A DNA stretch of 36,275 nucleotides, from contig JAJRWI010000080.1 of assembly GCA_024276825.1 (NCBI GenBank), positions 1 to 36,275 of the forward strand, read 5' to 3'. A program made the position numbers and the translations under genes. Positions within the stretch are counted from its first letter, which is position 1, and each line of letters opens with the position of its first letter. Under the pieces are notes generated by a model. The model was not told the origin of the DNA. It made no database searches and worked only from the letters and a program-made list of their open reading frames with translations. This document shows positions 22,812 through 36,275 of this stretch, one piece after another. This DNA comes from an archaeon. Its GTDB lineage: Archaea > Asgardarchaeota > Thorarchaeia > Thorarchaeales > Thorarchaeaceae.

Positions 22812-23055
22812 GGATTATTCAATATGTGATGACTCCATTATAGTATAAAAATATGAGAACTGATCTGAACATTCAAGCATGAATTAGTGCGATTTCATTG
22901 AATTAACAAGGATATTATTTCGATATATCATCTGAATCTGTATTGATGTAATAACAGCGTAATTATCATTGGTTAGAAATATAAATATCATTTAATTATA
23001 AGATATATTTAAATTTAATATGTTCTTTGAAATAATTACAAGGAGAAAAAAGGTA

Positions 23056-24456
23056 ATGGTATATTATACCGATTTGCCGAAGAGCGACAGACGCTGGGTT
23101 GTGGGTTACTACCTATTCCTATGTCTGATCGGTTTCGCCGTTCTCCTAGGACCAGTAGGCGGTGGAATTCCAATAAATATCATTGGAAATCCGGGCCGAA
23201 ATCAACATGAGATTGCAACTCCAAATTATGGCACTAGCCCGTCTGATTGTCAGACCTGCCATCCTGATGAGTTCAACTATTGGAATCAAACAGGTCATGC
23301 CACGCACATGAGTGTTGTGAACTCAACGCACGTGCGAATTGGAGCATACACAGTTGTATCTTGGGCCTTCTTCAACACTTCCTGTTCAGAGTGTCACACA
23401 ACTGGTTGGGACAATTCAACAGGAACTCCCACGTATGATTTCTTGGGAGTTAATTGTTTTGCGTGTCACAACTCAACCGGATATGTTGACTATTCTGGTG
23501 ATGCTTGTTCCACATGTCACAGACCAAGTGGCGAGGAGCATCCTCATGAATATGTCCCATGGGAAAACTCAGCCCATGCAAACTCCCTGAACGACTTGCG
23601 TAGCACAACTGAAGAAGTTCCTGCTGCAGAGTGTATGCATTGTATGTCCACCGAGGGTTTTGTGTACCAACAGAACCCCGATACGATTGGCAGTGATGTC
23701 AATACTGATTTTGATCCTTACGGGGACTACAATCCAATCTCATGTCCCGCCTGCCATGCAGTTCATGCAAATTGGTCTGCCGTTTCACCTGGTATGATTC
23801 GTGCAGTTAATGACACGCAACTATGCGTAACATGCCATTGGGAAGACCAAATATGGACAGGGGGCCCACACCAGCTTGCTGGAGTTGAATGCACAGACTG
23901 CCACGGTTATGACATTGCCCCAGGTGACAATGTGTTTCTGAACCACACCTTTTCAGTCAATCCAGACAAGGCGTGTGGACAGGCACCAGAGTGCCATATG
24001 GGACAAGAGGACTGGGCGGTCGGTCAGCTTGAGGCGATTCAGAATGCCTTTGACGCACTTTCGCAGGAGATTCTTGATGAGGCTAATTCCCTGCAGGAAG
24101 TCATAAATGCCTATAATGCAACCGACGGTGCCAATCATACATTGGTCACTGAAGTCCAGCAGACCATCGACGAAGTTGTTGAGAATGTTGGGCTGCTTGT
24201 TGCTGATGGTTCTCATGGCTTCCATGATCCAGCAGGAATAAGCTCAAGTCTCACTGCAGAGTACGCAAAGCTGCTGAATGCTAAGGTCTATTTCTATGAG
24301 AACATACCACCTGAAACAGTTACAGTCACACAAACTGTCACACAGACTGTCACAGTTCCAGTTGAAATGACCAATACACTCATGCTGGCTGGCGGAGCAG
24401 TAGGCGGCATCATTGTCGGGTTGCTCCTAGGAATAGTTGTAGGTAAGCGGCGCTAG
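23056..24456 (+). CDS. Membrane-anchored multiheme cytochrome c (7 CxxCH + CxxCM + CX5CH; NrfA/c552-like helical C-terminus)
   Basis: CQTCH, CSECH, CFACH, CSTCH, CPACH, CVTCH, CTDCH; DGSHGFHDP; N-terminal hydrophobic signal; Thr/Val linker, C-terminal TM and KRR; AGGAG before the ATG at 23056. Confidence 0.88.
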   Translation: MVYYTDLPKSDRRWVVGYYLFLCLIGFAVLLGPVGGGIPINIIGNPGRNQHEIATPNYGTSPSDCQTCHPDEFNYWNQTGHATHMSVVNSTHVRIGAYTVVSWAFFNTSCSECHTTGWDNSTGTPTYDFLGVNCFACHNSTGYVDYSGDACSTCHRPSGEEHPHEYVPWENSAHANSLNDLRSTTEEVPAAECMHCMSTEGFVYQQNPDTIGSDVNTDFDPYGDYNPISCPACHAVHANWSAVSPGMIRAVNDTQLCVTCHWEDQIWTGGPHQLAGVECTDCHGYDIAPGDNVFLNHTFSVNPDKACGQAPECHMGQEDWAVGQLEAIQNAFDALSQEILDEANSLQEVINAYNATDGANHTLVTEVQQTIDEVVENVGLLVADGSHGFHDPAGISSSLTAEYAKLLNAKVYFYENIPPETVTVTQTVTQTVTVPVEMTNTLMLAGGAVGGIIVGLLLGIVVGKRR

Positions 24457-24632: not shown

Positions 24633-26612
24633 TTAGATCATAATTAGCGATTGAATCAAAAACTCCAATAATCTGTATACTATTCCCCCAACAATTATTG
24701 CAGTTATTAGATTCGCTAATGCGATTGCAATAGTAGGTCGCCACCCAAATTCTTTGATTAATATTGCGAGGGTTGATATACATGGGATATATAGCATTCC
24801 AATAAGTGCAAGCACGATGAATTGAACAGGCGTTAGAACTAGCGCAAGGTTTGTTCCATAGATGGCAACCAATAAAAGAAGAATGTACTCCTTTCTAATG
24901 ACGCCGAAAATCAATAATATTCCAGCGATTGCAGGTAATCCAAGCCACCAAACAGTAAGCGGAGCTAGAAAGTTGCTTATTGGGTCAAGGAACCCAAATG
25001 CATACATTCCCTGAACCAACGCGCTTCCAAGTATATACAACGGAAAGACCATGTAGATAATTGATTTTGTCCGTGTCCAAGTCTGCTTTGTTACTACAGA
25101 GAAGGAAGGAACTCTAAGAGTATGAATTTCCATTATCAGACCAGTCGTTTCTCCAGACAATGCTTTGAATGCCATTCGACCCACTATGAACATAATAAAG
25201 ATATCAATAAGATAGAGTGCCAATGCCCATTCAATGCTAACAAATGCGGCAACAAGACCAAGAATAATAATGGTTCTCGCAGAACATGGGGCGAAAGTAA
25301 TTGCGAGTGCTGCAAGCATTCTCTCACGTCGGGTTTCCAGTATTCTGGTTGTGTAAATGGCAGGAACATTGCAGCCGTAACCAAGTATCAATGGAACCAG
25401 CGCTTTACCATGTAGCCCAATCTTGTGCATGAAGCTGTCCATCATAAATGCCACTCTTGGTAGAATTCCAGAATCTTCAATCACTGTGAGCATAAGATAA
25501 AAAGGAATTATATAAGGCACAACCAGTGTGATTCCAGCAACAATGCCACCGAAGGCACCGTTCCATAATATGCTGATAACTGGTCCACTTACAACTGGAT
25601 CCACGGGTTGAAAGAATCCAAATAGCTGAGAGAGGATATCAGATAAGAAATTTCCAACTAAGAATGTCCACAACAGCAATGTGGCAATGACCATAAATGA
25701 AACAACATAGCCAAAAACCCGATGAGTCACAATGCGGTCGAGCTTTTCTGATAATGTTGCTTCTATTTCGGTGTTTATCTGGGAGTCGTTTGCAATCCTG
25801 CTTGCGCATGAGTATCTCTCAGAGTTAATGATTGAAAAGCAAGGTTCTTGATGGATGTCCTCTAATTCAATGGCAAGTTGGTTGGCTAGGATGATTATTT
25901 CCTTAGATTCTGATTCCATCTGCTCACGTACTTCTTCATCATCTTCCAACAGCTTAATTGCAATCCATCTTAGAGGATACCCCAATTGAAGTTTGATGGA
26001 CTTGAGGAACTTGACAAGTTTCTCAATCCTCTCTTCCACTTCTGCCCCATATCGAATTAGTGGTTTCTTTTCTTGTGGGGCATTTTTGGCCACCCCTACA
26101 GCTACTTCCATTAAATCATGAAGACCCTCGCCACGAATAGCCACAGTGGGAATGACTGGCACTCCAAGAGCAGCTTGTAGCTTATCAATATCTATAATGA
26201 GCCCCTTTTTCAAAGCAATGTCCATCTGATTGACACAAATGACAAGTGGGACTTCCAGCTCCATCAATTGAAGAGTAAAGTACAGATTGCGTTCTAATAC
26301 TGATGCATCAATGACATTAATTACGACATTTGGCTCTTCAAAGGCAATATACTCTCTAGAAACTACTTCCTCAAGAGAGAATGTTGAGAACGAGTATATT
26401 CCAGGTAGATCAATAACTTCAATATCATAGTTCTCAAAACGAAGATATCCCTTTGCAAGCTCAACTGTCTTTCCCGGCCAATTTCCTATGATCTGACGAG
26501 AGCCTGTGAGATGATTGAAAATCACACTCTTGCCAACATTGGCATTTCCAGCAAGAGCAATAACCAGTTGTTTGTCTGCCGCTTCCATTGATGTCTTGTC
26601 TTCAGAAGGCAT
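24633..26612 (-). CDS. feoB: Ferrous iron transporter FeoB
   Basis: [38 protein letters not shown]; start placed at the ATG at 26612 to avoid overlap with the upstream gene. Confidence 0.95.
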
Positions 26613-26643
26613 AGAGCAATGACCTGTAAGTCTCACTATATGA

Positions 26644-27381
26644 TTACACTCCCAGAACTTCAACAAAGACACTCGAACCAACAGTCCGGCCAAGAGCGAT
26701 ATTTGATCCTCTGACCGCAATCTCCACCGGACCTCTGAACGGTGCTTTTCTCAAAACGACAATTGTAGCACCTACTGTAATGCCTAAGTCCAAGAGTCTT
26801 CTGATCATTTTGTGACCACCTCGGATAAAGGCAATTCTGGCCTTTTGTCCCTCTTTTAAAGCAGGGTCGGCCAATGATATTACATCTTGGTCGCGCTTGC
26901 CTATTTCTCCAAGATCGCGTCTTTTTTTCTTCATACACTCATCACAGCTTGATAATTTCAAATCACATGCAGGGATTGGATTACGAGTGTCTGGACACTT
27001 ATCCGGATGCTTAAGCAATTGGCATAGCGCTCGCTCGGACTCGTCATTTAAGGTGTGTTCTATTTCGCATGCCTGATCATGAACACGATCCTTCTTGATT
27101 TTCAGAATGTAATGCAAGAAACATTCGAGCAATCTGTGTCTGCGAACCATCTTTTTGGCGATTCTACGTCCTTCAACTGTTAGATTCACGCCCTTATACG
27201 GGTAGTAATTGACATAGCCCAACTCACTTAATCGTTGCATCATCTGAGTGACACTTGCAGGGGCGATGTTCATTTTTTTAGCAATCTCTGAATTCTTCAC
27301 CTTATCAGCATTCTGACTGAGCTTATAGATCACTTCAAGATATTCTTGGATGCTTTCACTCTGTAATTCGTCAGTGGACAT
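26644..27381 (-). CDS. DtxR/MntR family metal-dependent repressor with C-terminal FeoA domain
   Basis: EYLEVIY, PASVTQM, RRHRLLE.FL, ACEIEH, P..CP; FeoA RRLLDLG...APFRGPV...IALGR. Confidence 0.92.
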
Positions 27382-29258: not shown

Positions 29259-31766
29259 CTAAGGCAGATAGCTTGATTGATACCATATTAAGCCCTCAGG
29301 GGGACCTGATGTTATCACGAAATAGTAGATTCCTATTTCAGGCCCTATCAGCTGTACGGTTTGGCTATCTGCCGTTAGAAAGAATTCATGAATTATTGTC
29401 AGATTATAACTCAAGATTAGTCCTGTAAACTCTGCACCTGTTGGAATCTCTGCATAGAAGTCATAATTGTAGCTTGAATTCAAGAAAGAATAGCCAGCAA
29501 GAATGCCTCCATAAATGTCCCATGGTGTAGGGCACATTAGATATGGATAGCTATCCCTAATGGGATTCATTGCATTCGGGGGTGTTTCATTCGCTGGAGT
29601 CACTGTCATGGTAATATTGAATGCAGTGTCATTCAAATTCTGCTTGATGACGATCAACTTTGTCAAAGAAGCAGAACCTGCGTCAGGGTCGAGGATGTAT
29701 CCAGGCCAAGCATTATTAAGAATCTCAACGAATTGAGTGTCATTTGTGCCATCTGACCAATATCGAATTATTGTTATATTAAGATGTTTATTATTGCCTC
29801 CACTCCAATTAAGAAACATTGAGAATGAGGTGCTATTGTTGATGTTAATTACTTCAAAAGCAGACTCTTCAGGTTGTAATTCGACAGTGTCGTTAAGAGC
29901 TTGACCCTCATATGTCATGCTCAAAGTCTTGTTATAATCGGGAGTGATGGTCATTGTGATACGTTGGGTATATCGTGTTGTAACACCTTTAATGACCCAG
30001 ATTCTTGAGATCCGCTTAGGTGCGTTTGGATTGAGATGGATAATGCCAGTTTTGCTCGTTGAATTCATATGAATAATGATGGTTTCATTAGTCCCATCTT
30101 CATAAAATACCAAAACTGATGCCACCCATTTGTCACTAGAGTAGGACCAATTAAGCCGCAGGGTGAATGGAGATTCTCCAGTGATATTCACCTCTTCAAT
30201 CACGGCACCACCCTTGCCCCTTACCCATACTGTGTCATTCAGAGCACCATCAGTGTAATTCATTCGAACATGTGGCTCATACAATGGCACACCATTTGCC
30301 TTATGCGCATCAAGAATTAGCCAGCTCCAAAATCGAATCAAGGCTTGTTCAAGAGTCATGTTCAATACTCTTTGAAGCGCGGTTTCAGGCGACACGTTTC
30401 TGGAATCGCCACTGCCATAATATTTAGTTTCATTGAATATTCTTAGAAGGGTATTGGGACCAAATGTTTCATTCAGCCATTTTGTGAACAAGAATGAAGC
30501 CATGTAATCATTCCATGTGCCCACCCATCTTTCGAATGGACTACTTGCATTCAAGTCTCTATAATGATCAAACCAGTTAAGACTCCCAAGGCGCTTTGCC
30601 ATTCGCATCCATGATGTCATAGTCATATTGGGATAGTTCCTTAACATTGATGTCATGCCCCAGAATTCAGCCTGCCCTTCAACAAACCATCTGGAGTAAA
30701 ACCACACATGGCGAAATGTTCCAGTTGAGTCATTATATCTCTTAAAATGGAATTGATGCATCATTTCATGTTCGCCTACGAGCTTGAGCTCTTCCCTTGT
30801 GGCATTAGTTCCCACTCGAAATATAATGGTACCATTAGGATTAGCCGAGGCAGTAGACTCTACTGATGTTGATGATACTAGACGTACTCGGATCCTTCCC
30901 TGACTGTCTTTATTTGGTTCGCCAAAACCTAACTGTCTATAGAGATTAACTGAGAAGTTGATGTGTTCAGAGATGAGATTAATAACAGAGCGGTTGACTC
31001 CTGGCCCAGCTCTAACTGTGATATTATCACCCTGCATAAGGGATTCATCGAATCCAGTGGTCTGAATATCAGTTCTTACTCCATTGATGAACCAAATCTC
31101 ATCTCCACCATATTGTCCTGATGTGTAAGATATGAGAGCATTTGGTTCTCCAGGTGTCATTGGGCCTGTTACCCAAGAATCAGACAAATCATCACTCGGA
31201 AAGTATGAGAGAGACTCATCAGAGGCAGGAGGGTTCGGACCATCCATTGCATCATTCCAATCACCAAGGATAGGATCTCCATTGCCACCGCCATACCTCA
31301 TGAAATCAACCAAAAGTCCACTTGCGTCGTGAATACCAACTTCATCACCCGACGGGTCCAAAATACTCGAGTTAAGACCTGCATAGACAGTAGCCTGATT
31401 ATCGTTGATATCCAAGTCATTTGTCCCAACACCCGTAAATACTCGCAAATAGAGATACTTGCTATTTCCAGTGAGAGTTGGCAGAGTGATGATATCATCA
31501 TCATATGTCGTTAGAATCCAGTTAGTCATGTCTGGAAGCTGTCCAGTTGTAAAGAGTTCAATGAATTCATCTTGCGTGGATTCATCAGGATGAACCTCAT
31601 TTATGATAACTAGACTCTTATCTTGGGATGGGTCATCTACAAGCTCAGTTTCATCTGGTGGAGTCTGTGGACCACGATATAATATGAAAACACTAACACC
31701 AGCCAAGAGGATAATTATAACTAGTGCAACAGCGGCGCGTTTCATTAGTATGAACCTCGCAGACAA
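29259..31766 (-). CDS. Membrane-anchored/secreted protein: lamin-tail-like domain + gluzincin metallopeptidase + tandem beta-rich domains
   Basis: N-terminal TM; VIINEV...EFIEL...W.L (LTD); HEMMH plus downstream WFVEGQAE; many N-x-S/T sequons; start may be the ATG at 31745. Confidence 0.72.
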   Translation of the reverse strand: MSARFILMKRAAVALVIIILLAGVSVFILYRGPQTPPDETELVDDPSQDKSLVIINEVHPDESTQDEFIELFTTGQLPDMTNWILTTYDDDIITLPTLTGNSKYLYLRVFTGVGTNDLDINDNQATVYAGLNSSILDPSGDEVGIHDASGLLVDFMRYGGGNGDPILGDWNDAMDGPNPPASDESLSYFPSDDLSDSWVTGPMTPGEPNALISYTSGQYGGDEIWFINGVRTDIQTTGFDESLMQGDNITVRAGPGVNRSVINLISEHINFSVNLYRQLGFGEPNKDSQGRIRVRLVSSTSVESTASANPNGTIIFRVGTNATREELKLVGEHEMMHQFHFKRYNDSTGTFRHVWFYSRWFVEGQAEFWGMTSMLRNYPNMTMTSWMRMAKRLGSLNWFDHYRDLNASSPFERWVGTWNDYMASFLFTKWLNETFGPNTLLRIFNETKYYGSGDSRNVSPETALQRVLNMTLEQALIRFWSWLILDAHKANGVPLYEPHVRMNYTDGALNDTVWVRGKGGAVIEEVNITGESPFTLRLNWSYSSDKWVASVLVFYEDGTNETIIIHMNSTSKTGIIHLNPNAPKRISRIWVIKGVTTRYTQRITMTITPDYNKTLSMTYEGQALNDTVELQPEESAFEVININNSTSFSMFLNWSGGNNKHLNITIIRYWSDGTNDTQFVEILNNAWPGYILDPDAGSASLTKLIVIKQNLNDTAFNITMTVTPANETPPNAMNPIRDSYPYLMCPTPWDIYGGILAGYSFLNSSYNYDFYAEIPTGAEFTGLILSYNLTIIHEFFLTADSQTVQLIGPEIGIYYFVITSGPPEGLIWYQSSYLP

Positions 31767-31974: not shown

Positions 31975-32838
31975 CTATTTTGGCTTGTCAAATAGTTTAG
32001 TCTTGGATAGTCTCTTGCCTGATGAACCGTGAGGAGTGCGAAGAACACTATCGCCGGCTTTCTCAATCTCCCGTGCCTCATCAGCAAGTTTAGATGCTGC
32101 TCTTAGCACCTCGTGGGCAGCGGTTACCATTGGAATGTATTTCTCTGGCCTTTGCTCCTTGAAACATCCCTTTGTTGTTATGCCAGCCACTACGGGCAAT
32201 ATCTCAAGTGCGGCATATGCCTTTGCATATGCATAAGGATTAGTGAATCCACCAGCTTCAAGTGCCTTAGCAGTCTTTAAGGTGATTTTTGGAAGCTCTA
32301 GTTCTTTTCCATCTTTTAGAGAATCAATGAGTTTATCCATTTCTATCTGAATAAAGCGGATAACACCAGTTGTAGAGAGAACCTTGATCAGTTCTGCGTT
32401 AAAGAGAGCCATCTCGGAAGGATCTAGGAACTCTTTTCGCGCGCCTATCATAGGATCCATGGGCAACACAATGAACCCGCTGTTGTCAGGAACAGAAACA
32501 ACACTCTTCCCCTCTTCATTCTTCTTGTAAAATGCTTTCTTAGAAGGTGCGTCTGATATTGATACTATGGGGATATTCTTGCCTAGCAGAATCTCTCGTG
32601 CCCTAGTTGGCCCAGGCAGTGCCGCATTTGGACTCACAATAAACACAAGCTGCGGCTTCATCTCTGCCATTCTATTTGCAGAATATTCACAGGCATCAGG
32701 TTCAAGCTTCGCACCAGATCCCGCAGATACCACCGCGATATCCTTTCTCTCTGCACGTTCATCCATTATGAGATCAAGAAGCGGTGCAGCTCCAATACAA
32801 CCAAGTTTTAAAACACCTATCCTTACAAGGTCGGTCAA
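31975..32838 (-). CDS. mtd: F420-dependent methylene-H4MPT dehydrogenase
   Basis: KLGCIG...DERAER.DI...GSGAK, SPNAALPGP, DPMIGARKEFLDP.EMALFN, NPYAYAKA, RTPH; GGAGG RBS. Confidence 0.95.
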   Translation of the reverse strand: MTDLVRIGVLKLGCIGAAPLLDLIMDERAERKDIAVVSAGSGAKLEPDACEYSANRMAEMKPQLVFIVSPNAALPGPTRAREILLGKNIPIVSISDAPSKKAFYKKNEEGKSVVSVPDNSGFIVLPMDPMIGARKEFLDPSEMALFNAELIKVLSTTGVIRFIQIEMDKLIDSLKDGKELELPKITLKTAKALEAGGFTNPYAYAKAYAALEILPVVAGITTKGCFKEQRPEKYIPMVTAAHEVLRAASKLADEAREIEKAGDSVLRTPHGSSGKRLSKTKLFDKPK

Positions 32839-32941: not shown

Positions 32942-34525
32942 CTATTTGAGATTCGTGATGTTTTTAATAAATTCTAGAGACCATTCATCATCTTGTTGAT
33001 AATCATGGCCTAAGCTCAACGCAACCTCTGCTTTCATTAGCTCTGCGCCGAGATACGCTGCATGTTCAGGATTGCCCACCAATCCTCTATTAACAATCTC
33101 TTTCAAAAGTGCAGTAGACTTGTCAGAAGCAAGTCGTTGAATGTTTCCTTGGCCATCCCTATGCTCGCAGAGTACTAGTCCAGCTTCACGGTCGACACTG
33201 ATTCGAAAGCAACCTAGAGGATCTGGCACGTAATCTAAGCTCACATCTTCTACAAGATGATAGGTATCATCAAACGATAGGGACTGAACACTGAATTCCC
33301 TGGACTTGCTTGCAAATGCTGTGATGCCAAGTTCTTTCGGTGGCGAAATATTCATCCTCGCAAGAAATGCCAGCTGTGCGGTTGATTGCAGTTCACTAAT
33401 GCACCCAAGAGTGGATGGCCTTTCTTCTGTTGATAGGAAGACAGCTATTCCCAGTTCAACACCCAAGAGTGAGAGAATTGCATTGATGCCCATCGTGTCC
33501 GAATCAATAAACTCGGTTACATTGGCGAATCCTGCAAGGAATGGGGTGTTTTGATCTAGTTTCCTGTATTCATGAAATGCCACAAGTGATTTCATCAACC
33601 CGGGCTGGATAGGGGCCTCCAAGATAGGGTCTGCAAGAATCTTCGAAAACCCATTCCGTCGTAATCGAGCGGATAACTCGTAACACTTGCGGGCTCGATC
33701 AATCGGCTCTAGTGGATATGCCCCCTTTGATACATTTGTTGGTAAACAGACAATTGCAATGTTTTCAGGAAGTCTAGTAAGGGCGTTAACATTTCCATAG
33801 TCAATAGAGAGCACAATCTCAGCACCAGCATCAACAGCGGCCATAATCTCTTTTGGATTAAGCGAGTCAATGCTTATGCTCACTCCAAGTTTTCTAATCT
33901 CATATGTGAGTTCTGCAATGCGTTCTGGATCGCTCTTTGAGATGGTGGCACCCAGATCTACGATGTCCGCATATTTCGCGTAATACTTCGCAGTGGCAAT
34001 ACATTGTTCAAATGGACGTGTTGTGGCATCAACGACCTCAGCCATTATTTTGGGGCGAACATCAATACCAATTACAAGACCTGAATCTAACTTGAAGTTC
34101 CTCACACCAAAAGTAGCATCATGTTCAGCCTTGCTAAGAAGACTTTTCATCTTCTCCAGAATATAATTGCTAAGAGCCATATCCGCTGGTGCAGAACCAG
34201 AGAGATCATTAATCACTTCATCAAGATTAGCAAGCAATAGCGGCAAGTTTGAAATATTGCGAGTGCCTTTAAGAACTGGAATTCCAAATTCATTCTCAAG
34301 TTCAGAGTAATCGCCCTGTGCCATGCCCGATACAAAGATGATGTCAGGCTTATTAACAGGCATATGTCTTGATAGATATCTCTGTACCATTCGAGGAGTG
34401 GTAAATGCAGCCACAGAGAGGGGCAGCATCCTTATTGATACTTCTGATTGGCCGCTCATTGTTTTTGCCAAATCTGAATAGGCCATCTTCCCCGTCAAGA
34501 GGAGTATTTCTCGATCATGTATCAT
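32942..34525 (-). CDS. Dihydropteroate synthase-like protein (TIGR00284; pterin-binding barrel + DUF4346)
   Basis: LLLTGKMA, VAAF.TP, MAEVVDA, SIDS, ADPIL, NVTE.ID.D..G.NA; C-terminal DP.G.F.I...HAAYLG.EL.KAE.AL..G..Y.QD. Confidence 0.88.
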   Translation of the reverse strand: MIHDREILLLTGKMAYSDLAKTMSGQSEVSIRMLPLSVAAFTTPRMVQRYLSRHMPVNKPDIIFVSGMAQGDYSELENEFGIPVLKGTRNISNLPLLLANLDEVINDLSGSAPADMALSNYILEKMKSLLSKAEHDATFGVRNFKLDSGLVIGIDVRPKIMAEVVDATTRPFEQCIATAKYYAKYADIVDLGATISKSDPERIAELTYEIRKLGVSISIDSLNPKEIMAAVDAGAEIVLSIDYGNVNALTRLPENIAIVCLPTNVSKGAYPLEPIDRARKCYELSARLRRNGFSKILADPILEAPIQPGLMKSLVAFHEYRKLDQNTPFLAGFANVTEFIDSDTMGINAILSLLGVELGIAVFLSTEERPSTLGCISELQSTAQLAFLARMNISPPKELGITAFASKSREFSVQSLSFDDTYHLVEDVSLDYVPDPLGCFRISVDREAGLVLCEHRDGQGNIQRLASDKSTALLKEIVNRGLVGNPEHAAYLGAELMKAEVALSLGHDYQQDDEWSLEFIKNITNLK

Positions 34526-34648: not shown

Positions 34649-35470
34649 GTGATTATATTGCACCCATTTAGACGATTACCAACTGTCCAGCTGACGCCTG
34701 ATAATGTGGTTGAAGAGGATGATCTTGTAGCAATCGAAACTGCATTGGAAGTAAGGATTGGCAATGAGTTTCTTGCAGCTTTTTTATGTAGCCCAGGCAA
34801 CGAGAAGGAGCTCGCCATTGGATATCTGCTCTCTACAGGTATTGTTCAACAGGCATCGGACATTAAACATATTGAGTTTTCAAACAATCGTTGCAAAGTT
34901 ATTATGATGAATGGGGCTAGTTTCAACAGGCAGAGGGCATTCTCTCAAATTAGGCGGTTCATTGGAACCGAGTGTTCAGCTCCAGAACTGCTTCGGGACC
35001 TGCGAACAGCTCAAGGTCTACCTTGCATAAAAAATGAAATCGATGTTTCTTTTGAACGAATGCAGAAGGGGATAAAGCTATTGAATGAATTGCAGGTAAA
35101 TCGCAGAAAGACTGGAGCGTTTCATGGAGCTCTCTTACATCACATAGAAGCGAACCAATATGTCATTGCTGAGGATCTTGGCAGACACAATGCTGTCGAT
35201 AAAGCAATTGGAATGGCGATAGTTCAGGGCATTGAACCTATGAGTTGTTTCCTTATCAGTTCTGGAAGGTTAACTGCAGACATTGTCAGTAAATGTGCAT
35301 GGACACGCATACCATTGCTTGCGTCATTTGCTGTGTCTACAGACGCAGGAGTAAAGTTCGCACAAAAGGCAAATATCACTCTGATCGGTTCGTTCAAGGG
35401 TCATAAGATGCGTCTATATAATCAAGGTGCGGCAAGTATTGTCTTTGAAAAAGCACAACAAAATAATTAA
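34649..35470 (+). CDS. fdhD: Formate dehydrogenase accessory sulfurtransferase
   Basis: CSP...ELAIGYL, TGAFHGA, EDLGRHNAVDKAIG, SSGR. Confidence 0.9.
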   Translation: MIILHPFRRLPTVQLTPDNVVEEDDLVAIETALEVRIGNEFLAAFLCSPGNEKELAIGYLLSTGIVQQASDIKHIEFSNNRCKVIMMNGASFNRQRAFSQIRRFIGTECSAPELLRDLRTAQGLPCIKNEIDVSFERMQKGIKLLNELQVNRRKTGAFHGALLHHIEANQYVIAEDLGRHNAVDKAIGMAIVQGIEPMSCFLISSGRLTADIVSKCAWTRIPLLASFAVSTDAGVKFAQKANITLIGSFKGHKMRLYNQGAASIVFEKAQQNN

Positions 35471-35551: not shown

Positions 35552-35869
35552 CTATTTTCCGCAACACTCACTTCCCGTTTGACAACCTTCATCTTCGGTG
35601 TAAGAACTCTTGCGTTTCGATAGGATTCTGGACATTTGGTTCCATATGCAACCACATCCGAAGTTAATTATGGATACTGCGTTTGAGGGACAGTTCTTGG
35701 CACAGGCAGTGCAGTTAGTACAATCCCAGGGTCGTGCTATTATTGCAGGACCAGTTTCAGGTAGCTCCCAAACATTGAATGGACAGACCTCAATGCACAT
35801 GCCACATCTTGTGCATGCGGATGAATCATAGACAACATCTGTTTGATGCTTTTGCTCTGAGATTGTCAT
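35552..35869 (-). CDS. HgcB-like 2[4Fe-4S] ferredoxin
   Basis: Two CxxCxxCxxxCP motifs, post-cluster GCGC and C-terminal CC as in HgcB; second motif is CTNCTAC rather than C(M/I)ECGA. Confidence 0.75.
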   Translation of the reverse strand: MTISEQKHQTDVVYDSSACTRCGMCIEVCPFNVWELPETGPAIIARPWDCTNCTACAKNCPSNAVSIINFGCGCIWNQMSRILSKRKSSYTEDEGCQTGSECCGK

Positions 35870-35873
35870 TTTA

Positions 35874-36275
35874 TCACCAATTAAGAATGAAAGCAGCCGA
35901 ATTAAAGGCTATCAGGAAAATTGCTCCCAATATTAGTATTAACAGCATATATGGAAACTCTGCTCTTATAGATTTCGGATCACTAATTGAAGTCATCCCC
36001 GCAAAGTCCATTGTCAATGTTATGGCAAGTATTAGTTGAACTGCTGTCCAATTGACAATAGTTGTCCAATATGAATTGAGAAACAGCATTATCAATAAGG
36101 CAAAGGGCACTGTAATTATGGCAAAGCCGAATCCCCTTCTGAGAAATGAATTATTGCGAGATGGCAGCAAGGGAAATATCAGTCCAAGTAACAATGTATT
36201 AGCGAAGAGTGCAAATACAAATTTACTGATCAAGACAATAATACCAATGCTCTGATTCAGGATACTGAAAAACAT
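35874..36275 (-). CDS. C-terminal membrane domain of an HgcA-like corrinoid protein, 5' part probably outside window
   Basis: IFPLLP...SF.RRG and LTMDFAGMTS.S....IRAE match HgcA TM-domain patterns (LLPWLP..F..KG; NFTG.T..TS.SGV..EM); stop lies 4 nt before the HgcB-like gene. Confidence 0.65.
   Translation of the reverse strand: MFFSILNQSIGIIVLISKFVFALFANTLLLGLIFPLLPSRNNSFLRRGFGFAIITVPFALLIMLFLNSYWTTIVNWTAVQLILAITLTMDFAGMTSISDPKSIRAEFPYMLLILILGAIFLIAFNSAAFILNW

Follow-up and report, generated by a model that had tools for sequence, protein, structure and literature searches.

Does the gene pair at the edge of this Asgard contig encode a divergent mercury methylase, or a related corrinoid methyltransferase that acts on another acceptor? 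The window, i.e. the whole stretch of 36,275 nucleotides that was analysed, is the entire contig C74 of a 2.9-Mb assembly of 82 contigs (98% complete), and its right end carries two neighbouring ORFs on the minus strand (Table 1). A first-pass annotation had read them as a divergent hgcA/hgcB-like pair from a probable Asgard archaeon, and this description held; the window end holds the 3′ part of a real HgcA/HgcB-related two-gene module and no chance pattern, and the named close homologues are all from Asgard MAGs, mostly of Thorarchaeota.

Table 1. Coordinates of the gene pair and of neighbouring or related genes; plain positions refer to the window (contig C74), others to the contig named.
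Feature	Position	Strand	Basis or remark
HgcB-like ferredoxin, 105 aa	35552-35869	-	best NCBIfam match HgcB, Cys-column comparison
Spacer of 4 nt between the ferredoxin-gene ATG and the HgcA-like-gene stop	35870-35873	-	...AAT TGG TGA TAAA ATG ACA...
3′ end of SAM-methyltransferase::HgcA-like gene, 133 codons + stop	35874-36275	-	helices 2-5, DFAG
5′ part of HgcA-like gene	G000:C82:1-1260	-	profile search of the assembly
Cystathionine gamma-synthase gene	C82:1369-2526	-	upstream of the pair, same strand
Cystathionine beta-synthase/cysteine synthase-like gene	C82:2523-3533	-	upstream of the pair, same strand
fdhD sulfur-carrier gene	34649-35470	+	converges on the ferredoxin gene
Pterin-binding-domain gene, 527 aa, DUF6513/PterinBD-DUF4346	32942-34525	-	
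mtd, methylene-H4MPT dehydrogenase	31975-32838	-	
cdhE	C82:8992-10407		in cooC-cdhEDC
acr3 of the same genome	C4:1059-2051		

The HgcA-like ORF is open at the contig end, and what looks like its ATG at 36275 codes for a residue inside the protein. When the assembly was searched with HgcA, HgcAB-like and CdhD models, the N-terminal half turned up on the minus strand of contig C82, where it occupies the first positions and is open at the contig edge. Full-length homologues (571–590 aa) cover both pieces; the C82 piece aligns with their first ~426 alignment columns and the window piece with the last 133, and ~22–24 codons between the two are unassembled. In the 574-aa homologue P0001 the window piece corresponds to residues 444–574 with 66% identity, which is also the identity of the C82 piece, and P0001 searched against this assembly matched C82:1-1260 and C74:35877-36269, plus a paralogue on contig C18 and CdhE. 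As there is a single N-terminal and a single C-terminal piece, in matching contig-end orientation and each 66% identical to the same homologue, we conclude that a gap in the assembly has split a single gene, whose completed product would have about 575 aa. A pseudogene or an assembly artefact was rejected so far as the data allow, since both pieces are open, conserved and placed at complementary contig ends; with the gene split over two contigs and ~22–24 codons unseen, it may still hide an internal defect. The spacer between the HgcA-like and ferredoxin genes suggests their tight coupling in an operon.

In a database search we obtained numerous proteins of 571–590 aa with the same architecture and 55–65% identity (Thor-type), the named ones from the Asgard MAGs mentioned above, and a second set of ~555 aa with 33–37% identity from Lokiarchaeota/Promethearchaeota (Loki-type). 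A full-length gene of one or the other type occurs in about 45 of the 201 sampled genomes of the phylum. The N-terminus of the C82 ORF is a class-I SAM methyltransferase (Methyltransf_25/31 at residues 43–162), for which the best family by a wide margin is CpaM (NF043040; 125.5 bits over residues 7–213, the next family scoring 37 bits). CpaM, the “corrinoid protein-associated methyltransferase”, has a cut-off of 180 bits, missed by this protein and by its homologues (114–140 bits). The CpaM-type trait, a class-I SAM methyltransferase tied to an HgcA-like corrinoid protein, is nevertheless present here in the form of a fusion. This fusion, out of sight of the first-pass annotation, tells more about the protein than any other of its features. 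The corrinoid domain, which the first-pass annotation had placed outside the window, is indeed found on the C82 piece (PF03599, residues 260–373, E 1.4e-21), and this piece gave 189.9 bits with HgcAB_like and 171.2 bits with HgcA (NF040863 positions 29–175). Its cap helix, GINVWCAARGTHF, contains GINVWCAARG and keeps the cobalt-ligand Cys. Of the cap helix expected earlier, N(V/I)WCA(A/G)GK, the Cys and the stretch NVWCAA are present, while the end is RG and not GK; this holds throughout, NVWCAARG being found in 30/30 Thor- and Loki-type rows against NVWC(A/S)AGK in 28/28 rows of canonical HgcA. Across 103 full-length family members, conservation reaches at least 95% for SAM motif I (L46, G49-C50-G51, G53), for D70, for GINVWCAARG, for LPQL and for several residues of the membrane domain.

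The multi-TM, HgcA-like C-terminus that had been noticed ahead of the ferredoxin corresponds to a piece of 133 aa with the last four of five membrane helices. A Pfam search of this piece gave no match, and the NCBIfam matches of the ORF to the membrane part are weak (HgcAB_like E 0.003, HgcA E 0.017); the five-helix domain is recognised in a full-length homologue, which spans NF040863 positions 28–321 of 325. The motif deviations pointed out in the first reading are real, both DFAG in this membrane piece against the canonical NFTG and, in the ferredoxin, CTNCTAC against CMECGAC, the consensus of 40 true HgcB. NFTG was the sole motif detected in canonical HgcA, in 16/28 rows, the regular expression being blank for the other 12. 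A sequence search of the PDB returned only soluble CFeSP large subunits (2H9A, E 2e-13), with no HgcA structure among the matches.

The second gene encodes the ferredoxin that had been described, with two 4Fe-4S motifs, GCGC and a terminal CC. Two CX2CX2CX3CP motifs (Cys19/22/25/29 and Cys50/53/56/60) are followed by FGCGC (Cys72, Cys74), then by Cys96 and then by a terminal CCGK (Cys102/Cys103), so that the Cys pattern of HgcB, i.e. two cluster motifs, a Cys after the second cluster and vicinal Cys at the C-terminus, is complete. Pfam recognised generic Fer4 families only, and the HgcB model NF040864 matched over positions 9–92 of 93 with E 3.7e-16 and 58.7 bits, under its cut-off of 99. Cys74 aligns with the equivalent of HgcB Cys73, a column in which Cys is 100% conserved in the 40 true HgcB, and in the ferredoxins of the Thor- and Loki-type clade the eight cluster Cys and this same Cys are 100% conserved as well. 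Cys72, which makes GCGC out of GVGC, is found in 100% of the clade and in 0% of true HgcB, and the terminal CC is kept by every Thor-type member. Moreover, a homologous ferredoxin gene lies immediately downstream in 29/29 related loci that were retrieved. The first-pass annotation had held that the extra cysteines and this gene order define HgcAB; on their own they do not, since a paralogous clade has both too.

Scoring with HgcA and HgcB HMMs, one of the checks proposed with the first reading, gave a related pair that stays below both cut-offs. The HgcA cut-off of 275 bits is missed by full-length homologues (P0001 205, P0028 194) and by the two pieces of this protein (171 and 14), and the same is true of the HgcAB_like cut-off of 285 bits (NF043039; 219 and 207 for full-length homologues, 190 for the N-terminal piece), while as controls a canonical HgcA (L057) scored 436 bits and true HgcAB-like fusions 367–448 bits. 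The ferredoxin being a separate gene, the single chain of corrinoid, membrane and ferredoxin domains of an HgcAB-like fusion is not found here. Judged by these profiles, the pair is outside all four curated families, i.e. HgcA, HgcB, HgcAB-like and CpaM.

The other proposed check, a tree against HgcA, fused HgcAB and CdhE, gave a separate Thor+Loki clade outside canonical HgcA, and it is in this clade that the protein falls. In the maximum-likelihood tree (51 rows, 327 columns, LG+C20+F+G4 by PMSF, CdhE as outgroup; ultrafast bootstrap/SH-aLRT), support was 100/100 for canonical HgcA, 99/99 for the Thor-type, 100/100 for the Loki-type and 95/92 for the two together, and the HgcAB-like forms grouped at 99/98. 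The Thor+Loki clade joined canonical HgcA at 90/84, and the AU test did not reject a topology in which all CpaM-linked forms stand together, apart from canonical HgcA (p 0.31). The same picture came from a quick tree of 78 rows. The Thor+Loki group is thus a distinct clade, possibly the sister of canonical HgcA. In a previous study, Lin et al. 2023, an Asgard clade was noted near the fused-HgcAB subtree, the N-termini being trimmed (first 327 alignment positions; PMC10083202).

Could the pair be, even so, a genuine but divergent mercury methylase, a functional orthologue of HgcAB? All residues found critical by mutagenesis are present, namely the cap-helix Cys, the equivalent of HgcB Cys73 and the C-terminal CC (PMC11588087), the split A+B gene order is that of canonical hgcAB, the clade is placed as its sister at 90/84, and in some Thor-type loci an ArsR gene lies upstream, as in ND132. 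Yet the scores fall short of the curated cut-offs (205 vs 275 for the full-length homologue with HgcA, 58.7 vs 99 with HgcB), the canonical clade (100/100) does not include the protein, its cap helix has a final RG in place of the GK of 28/28 canonical HgcA, and there is an extra fused methyltransferase, of a kind found beside 0/81 canonical hgcA loci. In addition, the HgcAB fusion from Pyrococcus furiosus, a non-canonical protein of another clade, does not methylate Hg (PMC10083202). The pair is therefore probably not a mercury methylase, a functional HgcAB orthologue being quite unlikely here, and Hg(II) is unlikely to be the native substrate. Of the two possibilities left by the first reading, the paralogue with another substrate is better supported by the HMM cut-offs and the tree than the divergent Hg methylator.

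Compared with HgcA and HgcB (Pseudodesulfovibrio mercurii ND132; NF040863, NF040864), the pair shares a CFeSP-type corrinoid domain with the N-V-W-C cap-helix Cys, the five-helix membrane domain, a separate downstream dicluster ferredoxin with a Cys after the second cluster and a C-terminal CC, an ArsR-type regulator upstream at some loci and, plausibly, SAM as methyl donor. It differs in that the clade has NVWCAARG instead of NVWCAAGK, D(F/W)(A/S)G instead of NFTG and GCGC instead of GVGC, as well as an N-terminal SAM methyltransferase of ~235 aa, and in its scores below both cut-offs and its separate clade. The clade also has an extra Cys 9–10 residues before the cap-helix Cys (residue 304 of the C82 piece in this protein), which every Thor-type member has (VLVCDT) and every Loki-type member has one position off (VLCVDS), whereas canonical HgcA is without it.

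The corrinoid domain is homologous to that of AcsC/CdhE (PDB 2H9A, 4C1N, 4DJD, 9FZY; NF003195 88 bits, positions 321–444); CdhE, on the other hand, lacks the cap-helix Cys, is soluble and receives its methyl group from a methyl-pterin and not from a fused SAM domain. Another likeness is found in the CpaM/HgcAB-like systems (NF043040/NF043039), in which a CpaM-type methyltransferase is coupled to an HgcA-like, membrane-bound corrinoid protein of the Cys-on type and to a ferredoxin with two clusters. A CpaM-like methyltransferase gene is adjacent or fused in 12/12 other non-canonical HgcA-like loci (HgcAB-like fusions and two short paralogue types), while within 2.5 kb of canonical hgcA such a gene was found in none of 81 loci from many phyla. 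What sets the present pair apart from the HgcAB-like fusions is a ferredoxin with a gene of its own and a Cys tail of the HgcB type, the methyltransferase being joined to the corrinoid protein instead; the scores are lower than the cut-offs (219 vs 285 and 114–125 vs 180 bits), and the tree sets the clade apart from the HgcAB-like one (99/98).

Other members of the wider family were encountered in the same survey. The paralogue on contig C18 (G000:C18:7391-9313; L005:757-2679, plus strand) is a 640-aa chain of CpaM, HgcAB-like corrinoid/membrane and dicluster ferredoxin parts, with 333 bits for NF043039 and 248 bits for NF043040, both above cut-off, and the cap helix NVWCAACG; it is flanked by a small winged-helix-like ORF upstream and by GAPDH downstream. 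Two more unclassified Asgard HgcA-like types of 327–344 aa occur at L047–L053 (genomes G184, G139, G130, G149, G167, G176 and G131), with cap helices NVWCSAAG and NVWCGSRG and a separate CpaM-like gene directly upstream in 7/7; the three that were scanned (L047, L050, L052) all stay below the HgcA and HgcAB-like cut-offs. The canonical HgcA used as control (L057; G025:C110:1070-2110, minus strand) comes from one genome of the same phylum, has NVWCAAGK and is 74–77% identical to HgcA of Anaerolineales, and it represents either a horizontal transfer or a binning error, the genome having ~9% contamination.

What reaction, then, would this architecture support? In purified HgcAB, SAM is the methyl donor, acting through a CH3-Co(III) intermediate with Cys thiolate ligation, the clusters of HgcB mediate and supply electrons, and Cys93 of HgcA together with Cys73, Cys94 and Cys95 of HgcB are crucial (PMC11588087). 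All of these HgcAB elements are conserved in the present pair, which has a dedicated SAM-binding domain besides, and it is from this that we infer a catalytic cycle. Gene 1 provides a CpaM-type SAM methyltransferase, an HgcA/CFeSP-type corrinoid domain with Cys-thiolate as cobalt ligand and the five-helix membrane domain; gene 2 provides an HgcB-like ferredoxin with two clusters and a tail rich in Cys. The ferredoxin would reduce the cobalamin to Co(I), the fused domain would bind SAM and convert Co(I) into CH3-Co(III) with Cys-on ligation, and the methyl group would then pass to a thiophilic acceptor held on the ferredoxin cysteines (GCGC and CC) at the membrane. The pair is thus probably a SAM-charged, ferredoxin-activated B12 methyltransferase acting on a thiophilic acceptor. 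What has been observed is the architecture, the conservation of the SAM motif, the cap helix and the ferredoxin Cys, the strict pairing and where the clade stands in the tree; the substrate and every chemical step are inferred. As canonical HgcAB uses SAM without such a domain, the fused domain may serve another role. SAM also methylates reduced cobalamin in the activation of methionine synthase, in TsrM and in class B radical SAM methylases, a likeness of mechanism only that extends to the supply of electrons by a low-potential FeS or flavin protein. Those systems have no sequence kinship with this one, which combines a class-I Rossmann methyltransferase with a CFeSP-type, Cys-ligated and membrane-anchored corrinoid.

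The genes around the pair bear on both the donor and the acceptor. If the SAM domain served only the reductive reactivation of Co(II), as in methionine synthase, the methyl group would come from elsewhere, e.g. from methyl-H4MPT of the Wood-Ljungdahl pathway. The homology of the corrinoid domain to CdhE/CFeSP would suit this, as would the neighbourhood, where mtd and the pterin-binding-domain gene are nearby and cooC-cdhEDC lies 8–13 kb away on contig C82. But the mtd, pterin and cdh neighbours are not conserved in other Thor- and Loki-type loci, the conserved module comes without a methyl-pterin methyltransferase gene, and SAM alone suffices as donor for HgcAB (PMC11588087), all of which makes a reactivation-only role very improbable.

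An organic or sulfur nucleophile, such as a thiol or sulfide of Cys/Met metabolism, a membrane lipid or a peptide, might be thought of as the acceptor, given that the cystathionine beta-synthase-like and gamma-synthase genes precede the pair on the same strand and that metG is near the pair in four Thor-type loci. Nonetheless, these Cys/Met contexts are not conserved, ArsR and ACR3 are the sole recurrent neighbours across the related loci, and the invariant CxC and terminal Cys pair of the ferredoxin would resemble soft-metal sites; we consider such an acceptor unlikely. More generally, the neighbours at this locus are absent from the other Thor- and Loki-type loci, being singletons in the neighbour clustering, and a conserved Cys/Met or Wood-Ljungdahl neighbourhood was rejected on this ground.

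Returning to a thiophilic acceptor, the neighbourhoods of the sister clade offer a candidate. An ArsR/SmtB regulator adjoins the pair in 13/18 Loki-type and in 3/10 Thor-type loci, the nearest relative included, and an ACR3-type transporter gene (TIGR00832 275 bits, cut-off 283) lies directly upstream, in the same orientation, in 11/18 Loki-type loci. Thor-type neighbourhoods are otherwise unconserved, the remaining neighbours being unrelated genes, and at the present locus ars genes are absent, the acr3 of this genome lying elsewhere (Table 1). A link to an arsenic operon consequently holds in the Loki-type, is seen in the Thor-type merely as ArsR in 3 of 10 loci, and fails at this locus. Since the Loki-type sister clade is found in arsR-acr3 operons, our best guess at the acceptor is As(III) or some other soft metal(loid), for which the evidence at this locus is indirect. 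Perhaps the Thor/Loki clade is the closest sister of canonical HgcAB and natively methylates arsenite or some other soft metalloid at the membrane, in a B12-dependent, ArsM-independent way that in the Loki-type is tied to export by ACR3, although we consider this full scenario to be rather doubtful. If this is true, an ancestral enzyme of metalloid detoxification would have lost its dedicated SAM domain, and the methylation of Hg by canonical HgcAB would be a derived activity of this enzyme or one on the side.

The clade bears on the natural function and the origin of HgcAB. SAM has been known as the donor of HgcAB since 2024, yet to our knowledge a module that would bind SAM has not been recognised in it, and here a close and widespread relative keeps all known key residues and carries an explicit SAM methyltransferase domain. 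It may serve as a test system for the charging of a Cys-ligated corrinoid by SAM, and for whether the ancestral substrate was arsenic rather than mercury. Moreover, as the cap-helix Cys, the HgcB Cys and the gene order resemble those of hgcAB, such pairs could be miscounted as mercury methylators in environmental surveys. Our literature search found no paper on the clade of methyltransferase::HgcA-like and HgcB-like proteins, nor on CpaM with a corrinoid; the HgcA-like, HgcB-like and CpaM parts are each already known, and it is their combination in one clade for which we found no description.

Some minor observations were made along the way. In about 10 of 18 Loki-type loci, two conserved small ORFs (~90–145 and 70–125 aa) follow the ferredoxin gene on the same strand (e.g. 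L171:10132-10452, plus strand, and L166:1783-2055, minus strand), with no match in Pfam or NCBIfam. In the window itself, an 835-aa protein (29259-31766, minus strand) has as its sole recognised domain a lamin tail (PF00932, E 7e-9), and at 24633-27381 on the minus strand lie feoB (695 aa) and, after it, a gene for a 245-aa protein in which an iron repressor of the DtxR type is joined to a FeoA domain. Finally, a 478-aa multihaem cytochrome c, unusual in an Asgard archaeon, is encoded at 23020-24456 on the plus strand and shows c552/NrfA-like, c554 and c7 motifs.
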